Shown: positions 1 through 12,529 of the stretch, piece by piece | Numbering within the stretch: position 1 is the stretch's first letter | Layout of the letters: each line of letters begins with the position of its first letter | Notes under the pieces: model-generated | Database searches by the model: none | What the model was told of the DNA's origin: nothing | Seen by the model: the letters and a program-made list of their open reading frames with translations, nothing else | Translations under genes and position numbers: made by a program | Source of the DNA: a virus | Lineage: Duplodnaviria; Heunggongvirae; Uroviricota; Caudoviricetes | Strand: one strand, 5' to 3' | IMG/VR virus record: IMGVR_UViG_2698536355_000015 | Coordinates: 1 to 28,825 of that record | Length of the DNA stretch: 28,825 nucleotides

Positions 1-240
1 ATGTTCGTCGAACTGGTTTACGACAAACGCAATGTGGCAGGGTTACCTGGGGCAAAGGATATCATCCTGAATGAGCTGACCAAGCGAGTGCATCATATCT
101 TCCCTGATGCAGAGGTGAGGGTTAAGCCGATGCAGGCGAACGCATTAAACAGCGACTGTACCAAAACAGAAAAGGAACGGTTAAACCGTATGCTGGAGGA
201 AATGTTCGAAGAATCTGATTTTTGGATGGTAGCCGAATAA
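1..240 (+). CDS. dinI: DinI-family protein (DNA-damage-inducible protein I-like)
   Basis: 79-aa product aligns along its length with E. coli DinI (81 aa), including the ...FPD... core and the acidic C-terminal ...E.DFWMVAE tail (DinI: ...ESADDWFVSE). ORF begins at window position 1, so promoter and any LexA box lie outside the window. Confidence 0.8.
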   Translation: MFVELVYDKRNVAGLPGAKDIILNELTKRVHHIFPDAEVRVKPMQANALNSDCTKTEKERLNRMLEEMFEESDFWMVAE

Positions 241-327
241 TAAGCTTTGTTTTTACATTGCTGTTTTATAGAATCCGCCGCCAGCCGGATATTTTCAATA
301 CTCGCACTATCGATTAAAACTGGCTGG

Positions 328-359
328 CCGCAGCCCCTCCTGTACACGGGGAGCTGCGG
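328..359. terminator. Putative bidirectional rho-independent terminator between convergent dinI-like and umuD'-like genes
   Basis: Inverted repeat CCGCAGC...GCTGCGG (about 7-bp stem) followed by TATTTTC on the plus strand and preceded by a T-run in minus-strand sense; lies directly after the stop of the minus-strand gene (365) and about 90 nt after dinI. Confidence 0.4.
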
Positions 360-364
360 TATTT

Positions 365-751
365 TCACATTACCGGGCAGTCATCAAATTCATCAGACCG
401 CGCATCGTTGATGATGTAGATCACCACACCAAAAACACCACTATCATCAAGTTCTGACAGGTCGTCACACTTCAACGGATCATCGAGTCTTTCCAGAACA
501 GTGCTCCGGGAAAATCGAATACGGCGCAGGGTAAACTCGCCTGCAATAGCACAGATCACGATTGAACCATCACAGGCTCTGACACCAGAGTCCACCACCA
601 GCAACGCATCTTTCATAATACCGGCACGCCAGTACGACTGGCCGGCACGCATGAAATACGTCGAAGACGGGCTTCTGATAAGCTGTTCGTCCAGTGAAAT
701 TCTTCGCTCAACATAGTCCTGCGCTGGCGACGGAAACGGCCCCATTACCAC
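365..751 (-). CDS. UmuD/UmuD'-like S24 peptidase-domain protein, N-terminally truncated at the position of the UmuD autocleavage site
   Basis: Product aligns with E. coli UmuD residues about 25-139 (GFPSPAADYVEQRI vs GPFPSPAQDYVERRI; DGEFTVKKL vs AGEFTLRRI; DVFGVVIHVV vs GVFGVVIYII). Ser60 equivalent is retained (GQSY), Lys97 equivalent is Arg. Track start is GTG at 749-751; an ATG lies two codons in (743-745). Confidence 0.75.
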   Translation of the reverse strand: MVMGPFPSPAQDYVERRISLDEQLIRSPSSTYFMRAGQSYWRAGIMKDALLVVDSGVRACDGSIVICAIAGEFTLRRIRFSRSTVLERLDDPLKCDDLSELDDSGVFGVVIYIINDARSDEFDDCPVM

Positions 752-829
752 ACCCTCCCCATCGCGCGGAGAATCCAGTATCTGTTCTCCGTCTGCTGGG
801 TTGTCTTGTCTGTAAAATCACCCTGATAT

Positions 830-1234
830 TTAGGAGCGAATTTCTTTGCGAAACAAGAGGAATCTTGATGACGCCAAGTTGACAACCATACCGGCTATAC
901 TTCCAGCTGCAACACCAATGATCGGATTTTCAAGGGCTATATTATATGTTGAGATTAGCCAACTATAGAGGCCGTAGTTGACTGAACCTCCACCTAACAT
1001 GAGAACAAAGTATGAGAGAAATTCGTTTTTAGGCTTCATGCATGAGCTTTTATCTTTGAAGGTTATCTTTCTATTAAAAACCCATGTAACGGCCACTGCT
1101 GCAAAAAAGGAAAAGGCTCGAGCTATGTAAGGCCCACAGTATCCAAGCAAAATATAAAGCACTGTGGTATCTACCAGAAAACCGATAGCCCCACTAATTC
1201 CGAAGAAAAAAATCTCTCTCATGATTTTTATCAT
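830..1234 (-). CDS. gtrA: GtrA-like small polytopic membrane protein (putative lipid-linked sugar flippase)
   Basis: About 120-134 aa with four predicted hydrophobic helices, the size and topology of the GtrA family; ATGA start/stop overlap with the upstream GT2 gene; low GC. An alternative start at Met5 is possible. Confidence 0.6.
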   Translation of the reverse strand: MIKIMREIFFFGISGAIGFLVDTTVLYILLGYCGPYIARAFSFFAAVAVTWVFNRKITFKDKSSCMKPKNEFLSYFVLMLGGGSVNYGLYSWLISTYNIALENPIIGVAAGSIAGMVVNLASSRFLLFRKEIRS

Positions 1235-2184
1235 TTATTTTTTCTCATACACGGAAGAGGAATCCCAAGATAGACCAGCCGCTTCATTTCATGCCGCCCC
1301 CTAGTCACATTGTCCAAGACTAAACCACAAACGAATGATAATGCCGCAGCAATCATGATGGAAGCCGCTAAAACTGCAGTTGGGAGTCGGGGAACCAGTC
1401 CATCACGAAGATATTCAGTTAATAGCGGGAACCCCAGTAATAATGACACCATCGCCATGCTCAAAGAACAAATCCCGAAGAAGGCAAATGGGCGTTCACT
1501 TATATATAGTCGACCAATCGTCTTTAGTATTCTCCAGCCATCTCGATATGTCGACAATTTACTGACAGACCCTTCCGGGCGTGCTCCGTAGGCTGTCATT
1601 ATTTCACCATAAGGCATGCGAAGCTCCAGAGCATGCACTGTCAGCTCAGTTTCAATTTCAAAGCCATTGGAAAGCGCAGGGAAAGATTTAGCATATCTAC
1701 GCGTGAAAGCCCGGTACCCTGAAAGCATATCGGTGAAATTCCCACCAAATATTTTAACAACACTTTGGGTAAGTATATAATTACCCCATTGATGTCCGCG
1801 CCTATACGCCTCACCAGCAATTTCCTCTTTCGTTTCTCGACAGCCAACAACCATATCAAGATGGTTATCAAGTAGTTTATCTACAAGACTTCTAACAGCA
1901 CTTGCATCATAAGTTGCATCCCCATCTACCATTACGTAGATATCAGCATCAACGTCGGCAAACATGCGGCGTACAACATTTCCCTTACCAGGAAGTTGCA
2001 CAGATACCACTTTAGCACCAGCATTGGTTGCAACAAGGGCGGTGCGATCCGTCGAATTATTATCAAAAACGTAGATATCAATCTCAGGCATAGCATCGCG
2101 AAATCCACTAACTACTGCTTCGATCGCTGCTTCTTCATTATAGCAAGGAACGATTAATGCCACATGTTGTTCACGATAATACAT
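1231..2184 (-). CDS. gtrB: GT2-family polyprenol-phosphate glycosyltransferase (GtrB/ArnC-like)
   Basis: N-terminal GT2 signature (ALIVPCYNEE...FDNNSTD...VDGDATY) followed by two C-terminal transmembrane helices, about 317 aa, the architecture of GtrB-type bactoprenol glucosyltransferases. Confidence 0.8.
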   Translation of the reverse strand: MYYREQHVALIVPCYNEEAAIEAVVSGFRDAMPEIDIYVFDNNSTDRTALVATNAGAKVVSVQLPGKGNVVRRMFADVDADIYVMVDGDATYDASAVRSLVDKLLDNHLDMVVGCRETKEEIAGEAYRRGHQWGNYILTQSVVKIFGGNFTDMLSGYRAFTRRYAKSFPALSNGFEIETELTVHALELRMPYGEIMTAYGARPEGSVSKLSTYRDGWRILKTIGRLYISERPFAFFGICSLSMAMVSLLLGFPLLTEYLRDGLVPRLPTAVLAASIMIAAALSFVCGLVLDNVTRGRHEMKRLVYLGIPLPCMRKNK

Positions 2185-2200
2185 ATCAACCTCATTTAAA

Positions 2201-3514
2201 TTATTCCTTTGTTTTTATTGACAGCAAAATAAATGGAACGCTTGCCGATGTTGCTAATATTGACCAATATGCGTATCTAAAATCAGATGCAACTCCGACA
2301 AATAGGTATGCCACAAGATACAGAAAACTTGACGTATTCAAGGCAAGAAAAACATCCCTGGCGAAACACTTACGGGATAACAGTCCATAAAGTGAAAATA
2401 TAAAAGAGGTCATAAGCCAGAACCCGGGATGAAAAACGAACGTATTTTTCAATAAGTTGGTCGTCGTTTCAAGCACTCTGAACAACCCAGTTTTTTCGTA
2501 TTTTAACCCTAATGAATTTTCTACAGTAGAATCACCCAATACTGAATTTGGATGCCACAACAATTTCATAAAGTTTTCATAACGATGATTCAGGTATGCA
2601 CCAGGTTCATGATATATAGCAAAAATCCATTTTTTCATTAATGATCCATCACCCCATGAACCAGAGTTTTGTATTTTTTTTAAAACAAAACTACAAGATC
2701 CCCAAACGTAAACATCCCATGCAGCCGCATCATAACAAGTTGAAAGCATCTTATGGCCTTCATCACTATCCCAAGTTTCCTCAAAATAGTCTTTACCTGA
2801 AAAATGAGAAATTCCCCCAAGATCAAAAACTATCAACGATTGATGAACTCGGGATTTTTCAGCATTTAAAAAACCGTAATTGAAGGTTGTTGTGAATAAA
2901 ATGGAGCATGCAGGAAAAAGAAAGAGAATAATCACCCATTTTTTCCATGACTGGAATTTACTTTTATTGAAAAGCAACCATACCAATGGTAACAAACCAA
3001 ACATCGCATTAAATCTTACCATACTTCCAATAAATAGCATGACACCAGCAAGAAGCAATATTTTCTTATTCTGCCCGTTATATTTTGAAATACTTAAGCA
3101 AATAAACCCTACAGCGCAAAGCCAAATAACCGCGTGAAGAACATCCTTCCAAATGTGGCTAAGCGTACCAACTGCAAACGGCATGAAGCCAACAACAATA
3201 ACTGATAACGAAATTTTTTTATATGTTTGCGGAATAGAAAGAGATATAAGTAATAAACCGCCCCAATACAGAAAACATTCAAGCAATAGCATTCCAAATG
3301 CCCCTGGCATCCAGTCATTCGTGATAGCCCAAATGAAACTCATAATCGGTGGATGCCAATCACTGAAATTAAAACTTGTCGCTTGCTGGTATTGATCTAA
3401 CGCATCACTAGTGATTAATCCAGGGAAAAAGGCTCGCAAAGTTATTAGCAACCCAAAAGTGGCTAAGGCAACTTGAGTAAATACTGCTTTTTTACCGAGT
3501 TTTGATGTTAGCAT
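2201..3514 (-). CDS. Polytopic membrane glycosyltransferase, GtrC-like / GT-C-fold candidate (serotype-specific transferase position)
   Basis: 437 aa with many hydrophobic helices in the N-terminal two-thirds and a more polar C-terminal region; sits immediately upstream of the GtrB-like and GtrA-like genes; very low GC. Family assignment rests on context and topology, not on a recognised motif. Confidence 0.5.
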   Translation of the reverse strand: MLTSKLGKKAVFTQVALATFGLLITLRAFFPGLITSDALDQYQQATSFNFSDWHPPIMSFIWAITNDWMPGAFGMLLLECFLYWGGLLLISLSIPQTYKKISLSVIVVGFMPFAVGTLSHIWKDVLHAVIWLCAVGFICLSISKYNGQNKKILLLAGVMLFIGSMVRFNAMFGLLPLVWLLFNKSKFQSWKKWVIILFLFPACSILFTTTFNYGFLNAEKSRVHQSLIVFDLGGISHFSGKDYFEETWDSDEGHKMLSTCYDAAAWDVYVWGSCSFVLKKIQNSGSWGDGSLMKKWIFAIYHEPGAYLNHRYENFMKLLWHPNSVLGDSTVENSLGLKYEKTGLFRVLETTTNLLKNTFVFHPGFWLMTSFIFSLYGLLSRKCFARDVFLALNTSSFLYLVAYLFVGVASDFRYAYWSILATSASVPFILLSIKTKE

Positions 3515-3690
3515 TGAATCATCTAATCTTGAGGAGTGTCATGGGGTTAATACTGTGAATTCTCCCACATGAGATATATTCAGGCAAGCATTTCGATCAG
3601 GGATTTCCTTACAGCAAGAAGCCATTGATGTGGGGATAGCGACGGCGGAGTGGAGAAATACCAAGTGCTGCTAATACGCGTTGATACCTC

Positions 3691-3709
3691 AAAAGCCGCG
3701 CGAAGCGGC
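3691..3709 (-). terminator. Rho-independent terminator downstream of tfa (end of late operon)
   Basis: Minus-strand sense GCCGC-TTCGC-GCGGC hairpin followed by TTTT, 6 nt after the tfa stop codon. Confidence 0.55.
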
Positions 3710-3715
3710 CCCTTG

Positions 3716-4129
3716 TTACGGTTGCGGAGGCCAGTTAACGTCCGGCGCGGTGCTGGTATTTGTAGCCGTCACCGCATCGATATAGTCCAGTGTGGCATTA
3801 ATCTGTTCCGTCTCAGACGTGGTGAGTTTGCGCCCCGCCTGGAGCTTCAACTGAACAACGCTGATTGACTGCATCGCCACATCAATCAGTGCCCGCCGCT
3901 GCAGTTCGGCCTGCGCTACGAGTTGCTCGTGCGACAGTTCCGGCACGGGGACGATAGTCACCATTCCATCATTATCAACAGTAAAGGTTTCGCCTGGCTG
4001 GCGGCTCATCGCTTTGCTGAACTCCTCAGCGGATACGTTGATTGCGCCCTCCGGGATTTGACGGTACTCCTCATTACTCGGGTAAAACAGACCGCCGGAA
4101 AACCAGTAAATAATATTATCCATACTCAT
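3716..4129 (-). CDS. tfa: Tail fibre assembly protein (Tfa)
   Basis: C-terminus ...TSTAPDVNWPPQP matches the conserved Tfa C-terminus (E. coli TfaE ...TSTAPDIEWPAVP); located directly after the tail fibre gene. Track ORF extends to 4177; the start chosen here is the internal Met (MSMDNII...) that avoids a 44-nt overlap. Confidence 0.8.
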   Translation of the reverse strand: MSMDNIIYWFSGGLFYPSNEEYRQIPEGAINVSAEEFSKAMSRQPGETFTVDNDGMVTIVPVPELSHEQLVAQAELQRRALIDVAMQSISVVQLKLQAGRKLTTSETEQINATLDYIDAVTATNTSTAPDVNWPPQP

Positions 4130-4133
4130 CCCC

Positions 4134-4874
4134 TTAATATCCGATAGCAATCCATGAACAGGTTTCGTAGTAGCCACTAGGTGCCCAGTTCTGAATCTGT
4201 AGTCCCTGCGTCCCTGTAGCGTTAACGTTCATTGATGCGTTTGAGCCGCTTGCCCAGCGATTCCCCATAGCGAACAAAATGGTATTGGGGAACGCGATAT
4301 TCACGTTATAGGTATTGTTTGAATTCGGCGGCGTTGAGGTGTTACCCCATTGCAGATACAGCTTCAGATTGCTGCCGGTGGTCGCAACAGAGGGAAGCTG
4401 AATATAACCATTACCTGACATCATGGACCTTACGCTGTCCATATCGATAAGATTTGATGCGCTTCCCATTCCGACATTGCGCGTAGAGGCAGAACCTAAT
4501 CCTAATGTAGTACGCATATCAGAGGCTGCTGCATTCCCCAATAATGTCCTGGCAAGCGATGTCAGGCTTGTTAATGCAGCTGTTTTTTGTCCGGTAAAAT
4601 ATGGAACTTTATCAGCCACACCTGTCAGCGCGGCTAATGCCGCCAGAGAGTCAGTATTTGCAGCAAACATCTTCTTTAAAGCAGTAAGCACCTGGGTCAT
4701 ATCATTGGGATCCAGGACCATCGAAGCTGACTCTACGATGTTCGCCAGCTCTTCCTGCACCGCGTTAAAAGCTGGCGCACGCAACCGCGTCGCCGGGGTT
4801 CCGCCGGCAACGTTGCCATCGGTATATTTGCCATCGGATGTGGCTGTAGATTCAACTTGCCCGATTCTGAGCAT
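4134..4874 (-). CDS. Tail fibre protein
   Basis: 246-aa Gly/Ser/Asn/Thr-rich protein immediately upstream of tfa and downstream of the baseplate genes; call is by position and composition. Confidence 0.55.
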
Positions 4875-4929
4875 GGGTCATCCTCACTTGATTAAGCGAT
4901 TAAAATGAAAGTCATTGTGTTGTGGTCGG

Positions 4930-5523
4930 TTATGCGTAACTGAAAATAAGACGCAGATGCGAGGGCGCAATTTTAGTGATCGCGCACTCGAGTTGTTTAT
5001 TTCCCCAGGAGGCCAGGGAATCACCACAGTAAGATGCACCTGACAGTGCGTATTTGATGGTGGTTTGCGGGGCGTTAATCTGCCAGGTAAAAGGCCACTC
5101 ATCGCCGTTCAGGGCATCGCCGCACGCCGACATACCGCACATCGCGGGGCGAAACTGTGTGATGGTGATGGTATACCCCAGCGCCGCCGCCACGCGGATG
5201 TAGTAATCGCGGTTCAGGCCGCCGGTACTGATGAGCTTTGCCACCACCATGCGCTGGCGATCGCTGACCCCGTCGATTTCACCGATAGCGCAGTCATCCG
5301 GCAGACCAAGCGTCGCCTCCCATTCCGGAAGCATACTGGTCGCAGTGGGCGGAAATGCCCCGGCAATGAGATTTATCGCGTCGTCATCCGAACGCTGGAA
5401 TGCACTTCCCAGGGCGCGCAGAACCGCCGCCTGAACTGTTTTTGACGCCCGTGGCCACGCCCTGCCGGTGGGCAGCAGCGCCCCCAGCGCGCCAGCGTAA
5501 TCATCTTTCGAAAAGAGGCTCAT
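4930..5523 (-). CDS. Mu gp48-like tail/baseplate protein (YmfQ-like)
   Basis: 197 aa, downstream of the J-like baseplate gene; size and position match Mu gp48-type proteins. Confidence 0.55.
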   Translation of the reverse strand: MSLFSKDDYAGALGALLPTGRAWPRASKTVQAAVLRALGSAFQRSDDDAINLIAGAFPPTATSMLPEWEATLGLPDDCAIGEIDGVSDRQRMVVAKLISTGGLNRDYYIRVAAALGYTITITQFRPAMCGMSACGDALNGDEWPFTWQINAPQTTIKYALSGASYCGDSLASWGNKQLECAITKIAPSHLRLIFSYA

Positions 5524-8764: not shown

Positions 8765-10161
8765 TTTCTCAGTACCTTCATGGTTACCGGCATAAACGCC
8801 GGATGCGGAACGCGCGCTTCCTGCACCAGTTCATCCGCACGGGTGGCATCCTGATACAGCCGGTTAGCCAGCGTCAGCGCCGGAAGGGGCTGAGCCAGCG
8901 TGACCTGAATCAGTTCGCTCAGTCCGGATGCGCGGTCGCTCATTGTGGCCAGGAAGGAAGACCTGATGGCAAGCAGGCTGCCATACATACCGTCCTCCGC
9001 ACGGTCACCGGCCAGCACCAGCGCCGTATCCAGCTGAACGGAAACCCGCTGCGTTATCGCTTCAGCCTCATCGCGGCTGGACGGTCTGGCATCGGCGGCC
9101 GCGCGGGTCATGGCCCCCGAGCACAACACAACGATCAGCGTGTTCATGGTCGCGGATATCGCTTTGCTGCTGTCGGATTGCTGGCATTCCGTGCTGATGA
9201 CATTAGCCAGTTTTTCCAGTGCTGAGATCCGGTCATTCACGCTGCCGGCACTGTCAAGAATGGCATTCACAACATCGGCGACACCCTGCACAAAGTCATC
9301 CGGGTTGGTTGAGTTATTCAGATGATCCACGGTATCGGTGATGTTTTTCCGGTCCATCACCGACTGCGCGGTCACCTGGTCGGCAAGCGCCTGAGTGTCC
9401 TCCACGTCGGCAGTCGACGTATTGCCTGAAACAGCGGAAGAGCTACCACCGACTGGCCCCTTGCTGTAACGGCCATATTGCGTATTTCCAAACGTGGAAT
9501 TCAGGACGTTACTGAGGTTTGTGACTTCGCTGATGGTGCTGTCCACCATATTCGTCCAGAACGTGACGGTACCTTTAATGGTGTTGATCGCCTGCGTAAC
9601 ACCGCGGATTTCACCCTTTATCCTGGCGAGGGTACTGGCGACCGTCGTGCTCACCAGTTTCAGGTAGTTGGTGTTTACAGTATCGCCTGCGGTGGTACTG
9701 TCCGTGACGGCGAATACTTTGAGACCTGACTCAATTGCCATCAGGGTGAACTCAAACACTCGGCCATTTTCTGTCGATCCGGAAATACGCAGACCGTTTT
9801 CAGGAATAGAAACCGTTAATTCGCCGAGCGTCGGGTGGATCAGGGTACCGCTTCCCTTTGCTTCACAGGCGGCGATCAGCGACTGACGCTGGGTAATGGC
9901 ATCGCCGCCGCCGTAGACCTGGCTGTTCTGGATAAGGAACCCGCGAATAATAAACCGCCGGGTGGCGCGGCCGATATCTTCAATCCACGCGGTATCACGC
10001 CAGGGGTACTCATGCACGGCCTGACGACGGCCGTGGCTGCCCTCTTCTGCCACAACGGCAAACGGCACGCCGCGAAACGAGCTGGCACGCAACTGGCTCT
10101 GCCAGTCATCGCTGGCACCACCACCCATCAGGGACGTTATTGCATCCTGAATAATTGACAT
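8761..10161 (-). CDS. DNA circularisation protein N-like (Mu gpN-like tail protein)
   Basis: About 466 aa following the tape measure gene. The track ORF begins at a TTG inside the upstream terminator hairpin (10191); the ATG at 10159-10161 (MSIIQDAITSL...) has a GGAGG Shine-Dalgarno 7 nt upstream and is the likely start. Confidence 0.6.
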   Translation of the reverse strand: MSIIQDAITSLMGGGASDDWQSQLRASSFRGVPFAVVAEEGSHGRRQAVHEYPWRDTAWIEDIGRATRRFIIRGFLIQNSQVYGGGDAITQRQSLIAACEAKGSGTLIHPTLGELTVSIPENGLRISGSTENGRVFEFTLMAIESGLKVFAVTDSTTAGDTVNTNYLKLVSTTVASTLARIKGEIRGVTQAINTIKGTVTFWTNMVDSTISEVTNLSNVLNSTFGNTQYGRYSKGPVGGSSSAVSGNTSTADVEDTQALADQVTAQSVMDRKNITDTVDHLNNSTNPDDFVQGVADVVNAILDSAGSVNDRISALEKLANVISTECQQSDSSKAISATMNTLIVVLCSGAMTRAAADARPSSRDEAEAITQRVSVQLDTALVLAGDRAEDGMYGSLLAIRSSFLATMSDRASGLSELIQVTLAQPLPALTLANRLYQDATRADELVQEARVPHPAFMPVTMKVLRK

Positions 10162-10180
10162 CACGCCTCCAGAAAGAAAA

Positions 10181-10203
10181 AAAACCGCCAATTTGGCGGT
10201 TTT
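10181..10203. terminator. Bidirectional rho-independent terminator after the AT-rich tail-module insertion
   Basis: Perfect palindrome CCGCCAAATTTGGCGG flanked by an A8 run upstream and T4 downstream, giving a hairpin plus U-tract in either orientation; sits between the stop of the 10226..10627 gene and the start of the N-like gene. Confidence 0.6.
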
Positions 10204-10225
10204 GATTTCTATTGAACAACGATAA

Positions 10226-10627
10226 TTAAGGGTGAACTGAAAACCCGTCTGGCGATTTAGTAACGATCAGAGTCCTACCATCGGTAGTTTTTACTACTGC
10301 CAGATTCTCTGTAACATTCATCACTCCAGAAACATTTATACCATTATTTTCCAGATAATCATGAGTAACATTTATTGAGCCATAACATAAGTCATTATTA
10401 GTATAGAAGCCTTGGTATTCCTGCTTGCATTTATTTATCGACAAAAACTCATCCCTAAGAGAAAAAAACGCCATAACAAATGTGATAGCTAAAACAACTG
10501 AAATAACTCTGGCGATAGCTCTCCTTTTACTTTTCTCCTTCCTAAATGAAAGAAAAAGACAGATAAAGAATAAAATCAATAAAGCAATGCAACCTTGATA
10601 AATGCTCATAATCCACCAATCCACCAT
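10226..10627 (-). CDS. Small membrane protein of unknown function, AT-rich insertion in tail module (candidate superinfection-exclusion or host-interaction gene)
   Basis: ORF in a markedly AT-rich island between the tape measure and N-like genes; two N-terminal hydrophobic helices then a polar C-terminal domain of about 70 aa; followed by its own terminator. No recognisable homologue. Confidence 0.5.
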   Translation of the reverse strand: MVDWWIMSIYQGCIALLILFFICLFLSFRKEKSKRRAIARVISVVLAITFVMAFFSLRDEFLSINKCKQEYQGFYTNNDLCYGSINVTHDYLENNGINVSGVMNVTENLAVVKTTDGRTLIVTKSPDGFSVHP

Positions 10628-10714
10628 TAATAATATTCCGTTACCCAGATGACTGGGACAGTTTGCACTTCCACATCGATTTTGTCATCAAAAACCACTT
10701 ATCCAAACCCGGTA

Positions 10715-12529
10715 TTAATAATTCATGGCGGTGGCTATTCTGCCATTATCCTCAACGTTATAAGTTTTTTTCTCTCCCTTATCATTTACCAGAGTTATCT
10801 CCAACTTTAACTTTTGATCAGACATTGCCTCTTTCAGGGATCGGGCAAGATTGTCTGCCATAGCATTACCTACTCCACTAGGTGAACCAGTGATAATTGA
10901 AGTTCCCGGTCCATTGTCAGTACCAGAGGAATGATAGATACTTTGTTCTGTAAAGTTACTTTCTTGTTGGCCTTCATTATTGATTATCCTCTGGTAATGT
11001 CCCAGAACGGCCCCAGGATAGGCCTGATTTTGCTGTCCCCACCGACTGGTATCGTAACCACCGTTGTAATAGCGGAGCGCCAGCGGAACATTTCCGCCGG
11101 ACCTTTTCAGGTTCTCAGATAAGATTTGTGCCCCAGCCATAATGTTCTGCCGCGGATCGGTCCAGTCCGTTATCCCGGTCGACCGGAAATTTGACGGCAT
11201 AATCTGCATTAACCCTCGGGCGTCAGCACTACTAACTGCATATGGATTCCCGTTAGACTCCTGGGTCATTATGGCCTTCAGCAGGCGGGGATCCACACCA
11301 TATTGCTTGCCGGCTTCATTGAGTAGATCGTCATACTGTCCGCCCTGGTTATACGGTACATAGTTATTGCCGCCGACAGCAGGTCGGGTAATGGCAGCCA
11401 TATCGTCCTGCAGCTGGTTCGCCGTATCCGTCGCCCGGTAATTCGCATCGTAGCGTTTGCTCACAGCATCCGTCATAAACCCGGCATCCACCATCCCGCG
11501 CTCGCTGCGGGGCAGGCTGTTATAGAGTTCCTTGTCACCCTGAATACGGCGCAGTTTGGCCGCGTCCGCGCTGCTGATAAACCCCAGCGCATGCGACAGG
11601 CCGGTGAAATCGCCGTTGGTAAACAGGTCTGTCACGCCCTCGAGGCCGTCTTTCACCGACCCGTCGGAAAGCAGGCCTTTGAACAGCTTATTCTGCGATC
11701 GTTGCTTCAGTCCGTCCCATGAGGCGCCCAGTTCGTTCATCGTGCCGTTGATATCGGACAGTTGTTTATTAAGTTCGGGATCGACCGTCAGCCCGAACGT
11801 ATCGGATTTTGCCAGCAGGGTTTTCATGCGTTCACCTTCACGCATCAGCGCCAGCATTTCAGGGGTAAAACCCATCGCATCCGCGACAGATTTTTGCTGC
11901 TCGGGTCGCAACGTCGGGAACACACGCGCGATCTCTTCCATGGTTTTGAGCGTATCGACTGAACCATCCTTGTTTTTCTGGATCTGCACACCAATCTGCG
12001 ATAACGCGCCAAGTACCTGACCGTTTGCCCCGCTGGCCGCTTCCTTCAGCGTTTTTGCCATCCCTTCAATCGATGCATTTGCGCTTTCGCTGTCAGCCCC
12101 CAGAATACGCATGGCGCCAGCGAGCCTGGTAAAGTCATCAACCCGCATACCGGCGTTTTTCGATGCTGTATCCAGGTTGTACGCCTCCCGGGATGCTTCC
12201 CGAAAACCGTAGGCAACCTGCTGAAGGCCATATCCTGCTGCCCCAACAGCACCGAGCGCGCCCAGCTTGCCGGAGATTTCCCCCACCATTTTTAGCGGGG
12301 GAACCATATCACCGATGAACTGCACGTTATCCCGCGCGCTCTTCGACATATTCTCCAGGCGTGAAATAAAACCGTTCAGCCCGTCGACCGTCTCCTGGCC
12401 CCCTAACTGGAGCCCTTCTTTGGTTTTATTCAGCTTCGGCTCAAGATCGCGGATAGCTTCATCAATCCGGGTTATCGCGTCACTGACCTGATCGCTGGCC
12501 ACCAGCTCAAAATCAAAAGAATTACTCAT
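10715..12529 (-). CDS. Tail tape measure protein with lytic transglycosylase (SLT) domain
   Basis: 604 aa, largely Ala/Gly/Leu-rich and helical, directly downstream of the frameshifted chaperone pair; contains a family-1 lytic transglycosylase motif (...AIMTQESNGNPYAVSSADARGLMQIMPSNF...). Confidence 0.75.
   Translation of the reverse strand: MSNSFDFELVASDQVSDAITRIDEAIRDLEPKLNKTKEGLQLGGQETVDGLNGFISRLENMSKSARDNVQFIGDMVPPLKMVGEISGKLGALGAVGAAGYGLQQVAYGFREASREAYNLDTASKNAGMRVDDFTRLAGAMRILGADSESANASIEGMAKTLKEAASGANGQVLGALSQIGVQIQKNKDGSVDTLKTMEEIARVFPTLRPEQQKSVADAMGFTPEMLALMREGERMKTLLAKSDTFGLTVDPELNKQLSDINGTMNELGASWDGLKQRSQNKLFKGLLSDGSVKDGLEGVTDLFTNGDFTGLSHALGFISSADAAKLRRIQGDKELYNSLPRSERGMVDAGFMTDAVSKRYDANYRATDTANQLQDDMAAITRPAVGGNNYVPYNQGGQYDDLLNEAGKQYGVDPRLLKAIMTQESNGNPYAVSSADARGLMQIMPSNFRSTGITDWTDPRQNIMAGAQILSENLKRSGGNVPLALRYYNGGYDTSRWGQQNQAYPGAVLGHYQRIINNEGQQESNFTEQSIYHSSGTDNGPGTSIITGSPSGVGNAMADNLARSLKEAMSDQKLKLEITLVNDKGEKKTYNVEDNGRIATAMNY

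Follow-up and report, generated by a model that had tools for sequence, protein, structure and literature searches.

Three-component glycosylation systems are well established (PMC11127046, PMC11194591, PMC8035078). Those encoded by gtrABC, as in phage P22, in Shigella SfV, SfX and SfII and in the GtrABS system of Escherichia coli CPS-53, combine a glycosyltransferase family 2 (GT2) synthase that links a sugar to undecaprenyl phosphate (Und-P), a GtrA-family protein and a variable glycosyltransferase of the GT-C fold. The logic of gtr systems is that GtrA and GtrB are conserved and GtrC is variable (PMC7685785). Prophages that modify O-antigen side chains change the serotype, the susceptibility to other phages, and vaccine and antibody recognition, as seen with GtrABS (PMC11990801). 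In P22, the tailspike gene is followed on the map by gtrC, gtrB and gtrA, which are transcribed back toward it from a promoter next to attP and int. Here we examine a three-gene cassette in a 28,825-nucleotide stretch of Caudoviricetes DNA (IMG/VR record IMGVR_UViG_2698536355_000015, positions 1 to 28,825), which we refer to in its whole length as the window.

The cassette is probably a self-contained moron (a set of accessory genes borne by a prophage) that spans about 828-3698, has its own promoter and provides three-component, lipid-carrier-dependent periplasmic glycosylation of a surface glycan, most likely the O-antigen. As its fold and motifs suggest, the GT2 would move a sugar from a nucleotide sugar to Und-P at the cytoplasmic face of the membrane. 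The GtrA-like protein would then assist the export or hand-over of the lipid-linked sugar, a role suggested by its family, by translational coupling and by a natural fusion. Finally, a GT-C enzyme of 437 amino acids (aa) would pass the sugar to the surface glycan in the periplasm, judging by its fold, the acidic residues of its first periplasmic loop and synteny. If the glycan is, as seems most likely, the O-antigen that serves as phage receptor, the serotype and phage susceptibility of the lysogen would change.

Three genes in a mobile block

The three open reading frames (ORFs) of the cassette are co-directional on the minus strand and lie exactly where an earlier note, made from the bare sequence of this DNA, had placed them. 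The first (3514..2201) encodes a polytopic membrane protein of 437 aa, a predicted periplasmic transferase with a GT-C fold and no annotated family. The second (2184..1231) encodes a 317-aa protein with a GT2 domain and two C-terminal transmembrane (TM) helices, predicted to be an Und-P sugar synthase of the DPMS/AglJ/ArnC/GtrB type. The third (1234..830) encodes a small membrane protein of the GtrA family, 134 aa in length, predicted to act on the lipid-linked sugar as a flippase or as an accessory subunit. The stop of the GT2 gene and the start of the 134-aa ORF share an ATGA at 1231-1234, an overlap of 4 nt that had also been recognised earlier and that is kept in the enterobacterial loci checked.

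The families proposed for the two smaller proteins hold, with Pfam PF00535 for the 317-aa ORF and PF04138 for the 134-aa ORF, as does the reported AT-richness of the cassette relative to the phage core: its GC content is 39.7%, compared with 56.3% in the 5 kb upstream. In 500-nt segments, the cassette ranges from 34 to 44% and most of the phage from 55 to 62%. Such a low GC content is ordinary for a moron. An otherwise different phage, represented by an IMG/VR contig (L091), is 87.8% identical in nucleotide sequence over exactly positions 828-3698 of the window. Because this homology ends exactly at 828 and 3698, the mobile block consists of the promoter region plus the three genes. Values of dN/dS against relatives are 0.04-0.14 for all three, which are therefore real genes under purifying selection.

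Full-length loci were found at 12 enterobacterial sites (L001/2, L004, L005-7, L011-13, L014, L091 and L092; L093, a third IMG/VR contig, ends within the GT-C gene). The order in which the 437-aa gene (C) precedes the GT2 gene (B) and the GtrA-like gene (A) is present in all 12, across three phage types as well as chromosomal sites. They include the Mu-tail E. coli prophage, a P22-like E. coli prophage in which the cassette lies beside int with yfdC-, mlaA- and fadL-like genes beyond, Cedecea, Pseudescherichia, two metagenome-assembled genomes (MAGs), Yersinia aldovae and two IMG/VR contigs. In Y. aldovae ATCC 35236 (L014, 1-793) the GT-C gene is split into ORFs at 1-345 and 356-793 and the GT2 and GtrA genes are intact; the split is probably either a pseudogenised transferase or a sequencing frameshift.

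Predicted functions of the three proteins

The large membrane protein had been proposed as the transferase component of the system, and its predicted structure agrees with this role. An AlphaFold2 model based on 41 homologues (predicted local distance difference test score 91, predicted template-modelling score 0.91) has a multi-TM GT-C core fold, with ArnT among the top structural matches. The model supports the view that the 437-aa protein belongs to an unannotated family of glycosyltransferases with the GT-C fold and is, by prediction, a periplasmic transferase. In the family alignment, D52, W62, D124, R167 and N169 are invariant and D37 is near-invariant (>=90%). Both D37 and D52 sit in the loop that follows TM1 (residues 36-70), which has no K/R and four D/E; the nine N-terminal residues include three K/R. 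A loop without K/R behind a K-rich N-terminus fits a position on the periplasmic side, and the placement of D37 and D52 would fit that expected for the catalytic acidic residues of GT-C enzymes. The corresponding E. coli gene is annotated by NCBI as a 363-aa hypothetical protein beginning at M75 (P0003, GKQ19_11915). This gene model is truncated by 74 residues, because window positions 3293-3514 encode the TM1 and D37/D52/W53 loop of all homologues.

The earlier note had allowed that the 437-aa protein might prove to be a transporter or an acyltransferase. In its wider form, this alternative makes the protein a transporter, an acyltransferase, or a polymerase or ligase of the Wzy/WaaL kind, with the GT2/GtrA pair serving another pathway. 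Some room for it comes from the lack of a sequence-level match to any characterised protein and from a Foldseek search of the BFVD viral models that returned nothing significant (E<=0.001). The protein itself matched nothing in Pfam at E<=10, NCBIfam or PHROGs, and its family profile matched no PDB sequence at E<=10. With a GT-C fold found, we regard this alternative as very improbable and retain the assignment as a predicted glycosyltransferase.

The 317-aa protein matches PF00535 at E 1.6e-16 and has a GT-A catalytic domain with a DXD motif followed by two C-terminal TM segments. Its structure matches those of solved polyprenyl-phosphate GT2 enzymes, which supports its assignment, at the level of a model, as a polyprenyl-phosphate glycosyltransferase. 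It is structurally nearer DPMS and ArnC than GtrB, and its DGD motif aligns with the DAD of the dolichyl phosphate (Dol-P) mannose synthase of Pyrococcus furiosus. The match to the AglJ model (TIGR04182) is full-length and reaches 196.7 bits, below the equivalog cutoff of 325, and in this the enzyme differs from the Dol-P-hexose synthases (P. furiosus DPMS, 5MLZ; Haloferax AglJ). It also matches the NCBIfam models PpgS (E 1.2e-15; 57.5 bits against a cutoff of 370) and ArnC (20.6 bits), and, over part of its length, PHROG_841 (2.8e-13).

The 134-aa protein matches PF04138 (GtrA/DPMS_TM) at E 7.5e-19, with 68.5 bits against a cutoff of 26.1. The idea of a "split DPMS" was set aside: the GtrA-like protein has no PDB sequence match, and the likeness stays an analogy, not a whole-protein homology. 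With a predicted polyprenyl-phosphate GT2, a PF04138 protein and a protein modelled in the GT-C fold, the three-component composition proposed in the earlier note is borne out.

Comparison with described systems

The three proteins have the same functional roles as those of gtrABC and, as in P22, the map runs from the receptor-binding gene through C, B and A to the attachment (att) end. Both likenesses would be expected of a canonical gtrABC operon whose order had been scrambled by rearrangement, an origin that is nevertheless highly improbable when the proteins are compared. The GT2 and GtrA-like proteins are each 23% identical to their P22 counterparts (over 137 aa for GtrB, and with E 1e-3 for GtrA), and a tblastn search with the GT2 brought up no canonical GtrB at 1e-5 among 50,697 phage records. 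A comparison of the 437-aa protein with GtrC, suggested earlier as a check, revealed no sequence kinship, as the hhalign probability of the family profile against P22 GtrC is 0.1%. Furthermore, P22 GtrC matches PF14264 (Glucos_trans_II) at 1.3e-33, whereas the 437-aa protein matches no Pfam family at E<=10, and the C-B-A order is held across the whole lineage. At the sequence level, the scrambled-operon explanation is refuted. By the same comparisons, the cassette is an analogous system of a separate, uncharacterised lineage, and C-B-A is its native layout. The reversed order that the earlier note had pointed out is therefore present, in 12 of 12 loci, but it is not that of a rearranged gtrABC, to whose P22 proteins those of the cassette are at most about 23% identical.

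As an analogous system, the cassette shares with gtrABC the combination of a GT2 Und-P-sugar synthase with a GtrA-family protein and a variable GT-C protein, and the principle that the donor pair is conserved and the transferase varies (PMC7685785; PMC11127046). It also shares the position of a prophage moron between the receptor-binding gene and the att end. It differs in that its C-B-A genes are co-directional with the late genes, whereas A-B-C of P22 is transcribed from the att side toward the tail genes, and in that its transferase falls outside PF14264 and every other model. Unlike Salmonella gtr, moreover, its promoter region has no GATC cluster and only one such site.

A mycobacterial system for galactosamine, said to have been described by Skovierova and colleagues in 2010, reportedly consists of the GT2 PpgS (Rv3631), followed by a GtrA-family gene (Rv3632), and the GT-C protein Rv3779. 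The cassette resembles it in having a GT2 polyprenyl-phosphate-sugar synthase followed by a GtrA-family gene, together with a GT-C transferase. The mycobacterial system differs in that its GT-C gene is unlinked and its acceptor is arabinogalactan, and the match of the cassette GT2 to PpgS is weak. ArnC and ArnT likewise pair a GT2 Und-P-sugar synthase with a periplasmic GT-C transferase, and both are among the top structural matches of the cassette proteins. Unlike the ArnC/ArnT system, however, the cassette has neither an ArnE/F-type flippase nor genes for the biosynthesis of 4-amino-4-deoxy-L-arabinose, lies in a phage context and encodes a GT2 with the low ArnC score given above. In the pentofuranose systems with GT136 (Kelly et al. 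2024, PMC11127046), the extracytoplasmic addition of side chains after polymerisation, by a GT-C enzyme with a polyprenyl-phosphate donor, is documented; for the cassette, the same is predicted. Those systems use a phosphoribosyl-pyrophosphate-dependent polyprenyl phosphoribose synthase and a MATE flippase, neither of which is found in the cassette.

Distribution of the transferase family and the donor module

An indexed search gave 441 matches to the 437-aa family, and a profile search retrieved 6,502 representative clusters at E<=1e-3, 1,647 of them at <=1e-30. The 80 best GT-C genome loci come mostly from soil Alphaproteobacteria (Xanthobacteraceae, Pseudolabrys, Bradyrhizobium), and about ten alphaproteobacterial members have the same type of GT2 about 2.4 kb away. 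The order is B-A-C in Caldimonas, and in Pseudomonas chlororaphis int is followed by a GT2 gene and then by a member of the 437-aa family (E 3e-37). In one relative, P0194, a GtrA domain (residues 6-118) is fused to a GT-C family domain (137-571). Among the long relatives that were examined for informative domain fusions (P0121, P0122, P0124, P0135 and others), P0194 with its GtrA domain was the only case. The family profile matches P0121 (1341 aa) and P0122 (1386 aa) at three to five places, a pattern that suggests tandem fused paralogues. From the synteny with GT2 and GtrA and from the P0194 fusion, we infer that the donor used by the GT-C enzyme is a polyprenyl-phosphate-linked sugar.

Within the cassette, amino acid identity to relatives is 86-96% for the GT2, the most conserved of the three proteins, 66-92% for the GtrA-like protein and 58-86% for the GT-C protein, the most variable; across enterics, the GT2 figure is 85-96%. 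In Azotobacter, Pseudomonas, Undibacterium, Methylosarcina and a Chlorobiaceae MAG, the GT2 (homologues P0320-P0377; loci L094, L096 and L098) still reaches 72-75% identity, far above what is seen for the partner transferases. In Azotobacter and the Chlorobiaceae MAG, the gene order is a large membrane protein, then GT2, then GtrA, and the large proteins there (DUF7657; 493-aa) are not detectably related to the 437-aa family. The picture that these sequences suggest is one of a conserved GT2-GtrA donor module combined with an exchangeable upstream large transferase. The high conservation of the GT2 suggests either a strong constraint on the donor-making enzyme or a wide and recent horizontal spread of the GT2-GtrA pair.

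Window positions 1-5000 had no megablast match among the 50,697 phage records or in complete E. coli genomes, and the 437-aa protein had no tblastn match in phage records. Kapi1, a P22-like phage that integrates at argW and causes seroconversion through an unknown gene (PMC8787464), was rejected as a carrier of the cassette on the strength of the same tblastn search.

Transcription signals

About 45 nt before the ATG of the 437-aa gene, the minus strand carries a sigma-70-like promoter motif (3587..3559), with TTGCCT as -35 element (3587..3582), a spacer of 17 nt and an extended -10 element, TGg followed by GAGAAT (3567..3559). The motif scores 8/12 to the consensus, below the scan threshold. 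In an alignment of nine loci with differing genomic backgrounds and unrelated flanks, it is invariant at 12 positions: C66, T67, T68, G69, C70 and T72 in the -35 region, and T85, T87, G88, A91, A94 and T95 in the extended -10 and -10 elements. The pattern common to the nine loci in the roughly 75 nt before the ATG is CTTGCnT, a 17-nt spacer ending in TnTG, and then GAnnAT. A search for a Dam/OxyR phase-variation layout with paired GATC sites, in which OxyR sites were not modelled, did not find one: the 200 nt upstream contain a single GATC (3595-3598), and this site is not conserved in relatives.

A hairpin (GCCGC-UUCGC-GCGGC, 3709-3695) followed by TTTT (3694-3691) lies further upstream on the minus strand, 6 nt past the stop of the tail-fibre-assembly gene. 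This element, at 3709..3691, is a weak candidate for an intrinsic terminator that closes the late or tail operon. Support for the terminator reading comes from its position and from an equivalent hairpin, GGCCGC-TTCG-GCGGCC, upstream of the cassette in the P22-like loci L005 and L092. On comparative grounds, the promoter motif supports a separate transcription unit more strongly than does the hairpin. At the other end of the cassette, a clear terminator with a GC stem and a T run stands right after the GtrA-like gene in L004, L005, L012, L013, L091 and L092.

Genomic context and the likely acceptor

In the window and in L091, the cassette directly follows tail fibre and tail-fibre assembly genes. 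In L005-7 it stands between a tailspike gene, whose head-binding domain is of the P22 type, and int, the place that gtrABC takes in P22, and in L092 it follows a TSP1-type tailspike gene and adjoins an Acyl_transf_3 gene. P22-type tailspikes bind O-antigen, and the Acyl_transf_3 family includes O-antigen acetylases such as Oac. This genomic context points to the O-antigen as the likely target. With tail-fibre or tailspike genes ahead of the cassette, and an acyltransferase-3 gene beside it in one locus, its position fits modification of the phage's own O-antigen receptor. Alternatively, the same chemistry may serve a different acceptor, such as lipid A or core (as for ArnT, LgmB and FlmK), enterobacterial common antigen, capsule, periplasmic glucans or protein. 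We consider such an acceptor unlikely, since in three phage backgrounds the cassette lies immediately after a receptor-binding gene, in the P22 gtrABC slot, and in one locus it lies beside an Oac-type acyltransferase.

Host prophage and neighbouring genes

Two contigs from E. coli draft genomes match the first 13.3 kb of the window at 99.98% identity, and in them the cassette lies near the ssrA-side end of a prophage, next to smpB. This prophage has a lambda-type portal and terminase and Mu-type baseplate genes. Directly upstream of the cassette is the tail-fibre assembly gene (PF02413), preceded by a gp53-like tail fibre gene. Downstream of the cassette, on the same strand, is a UmuD-like gene of the HumD family (751..365; NF051876, 164.7 bits), and beyond it is a DinI-family gene (1..240, plus strand). 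The DinI and HumD-like genes are SOS-related morons at the prophage end (window 1-751). Beyond DinI and outside the window, L001 carries a gene for a 494-aa reverse transcriptase (PF00078; 13716-15200) between DinI and smpB; at this ssrA-side junction of the prophage, it may represent an element of the retron or group II intron type.

In the P22-like E. coli prophage L005 (10680-10900), an intact-looking LexA box (TACTGTATAAATACACAG) stands after the cassette terminator and is followed by a 34-codon remnant that is 68% identical to the HumD-like protein of the window. The cassette and a humD-type gene are thus neighbours in two unrelated prophage backbones.

Two other regions of low GC content were seen in the window. 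One, with a GC of 0.38-0.44 at 10001-11000, is an island inside the tail module. There, a 133-aa ORF with two hydrophobic N-terminal segments (10226-10627, minus strand) lies between an SLT-domain tape-measure-like gene and a DNA-circulation gene; it matched no Pfam or PHROG family and is possibly a moron, such as a superinfection-exclusion or membrane protein. The other, at 27501-28500 (GC about 0.43), contains a match to the Hfq-binding small RNA isrI (27586-27682, minus strand; 71 bits in Rfam against a gathering score of 45) that adjoins a 301-aa plus-strand ORF (phrog_7003).

Discussion

In regard to the cassette as a self-contained glycosylation unit, several points weigh against our reading. 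The hairpin upstream folds at -14.2 kcal/mol with a z of -0.3, no better than shuffled sequences, and with only four U it was not picked up by a consensus terminator scan. Of the earlier proposal of a separate unit behind a late-operon terminator, the separate unit is supported by the motif that is invariant across nine loci, and the terminator is the part that comes out weak. In addition, no terminator was found after the GtrA-like gene in the window copy (752-829 examined). The first terminator-like site downstream of the cassette, at 335..322, lies past the humD-like gene, with which the cassette may be co-transcribed in the window. Most alphaproteobacterial GT-C homologues have no adjacent GT2 or GtrA gene, and the GT-C family is therefore not strictly dependent on a linked donor module. 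Furthermore, the flippase activity of GtrA-type proteins has never been directly shown (PMC11127046), and literature searches found no description of the cassette, its gene order or its GT-C family.

The cassette type stands apart in its uncharacterised lineage, its gene order and its unannotated transferase family; the three-component principle itself is already known. A more far-reaching possibility, which we put forward tentatively, is that the cassette belongs to an unrecognised and widely mobile three-component lineage, in which a near-invariant DPMS/AglJ-like GT2-GtrA module is paired with interchangeable transferases of the GT-C type and produces a lipid-linked sugar that is not Und-P-glucose. 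If so, the 437-aa family, which comprises thousands of representative clusters and lacks a Pfam model, would be the basis of a new glycosyltransferase family in CAZy. The cassette could also explain E. coli O-antigen side-branches that have no transferase gene, for example the non-glucose N-acetylglucosamine of O151 (PMC7685785), and it would escape current in-silico serotyping as well as searches for gtr.

More generally, searches by GtrB or GtrC homology, Pfam, PHROGs or NCBI annotation would miss the cassette. One characterised member would show what the thousands of proteins in this GT-C family do, and would also reveal the product of a GT2-GtrA module that is unusually conserved and is found in several bacterial phyla.

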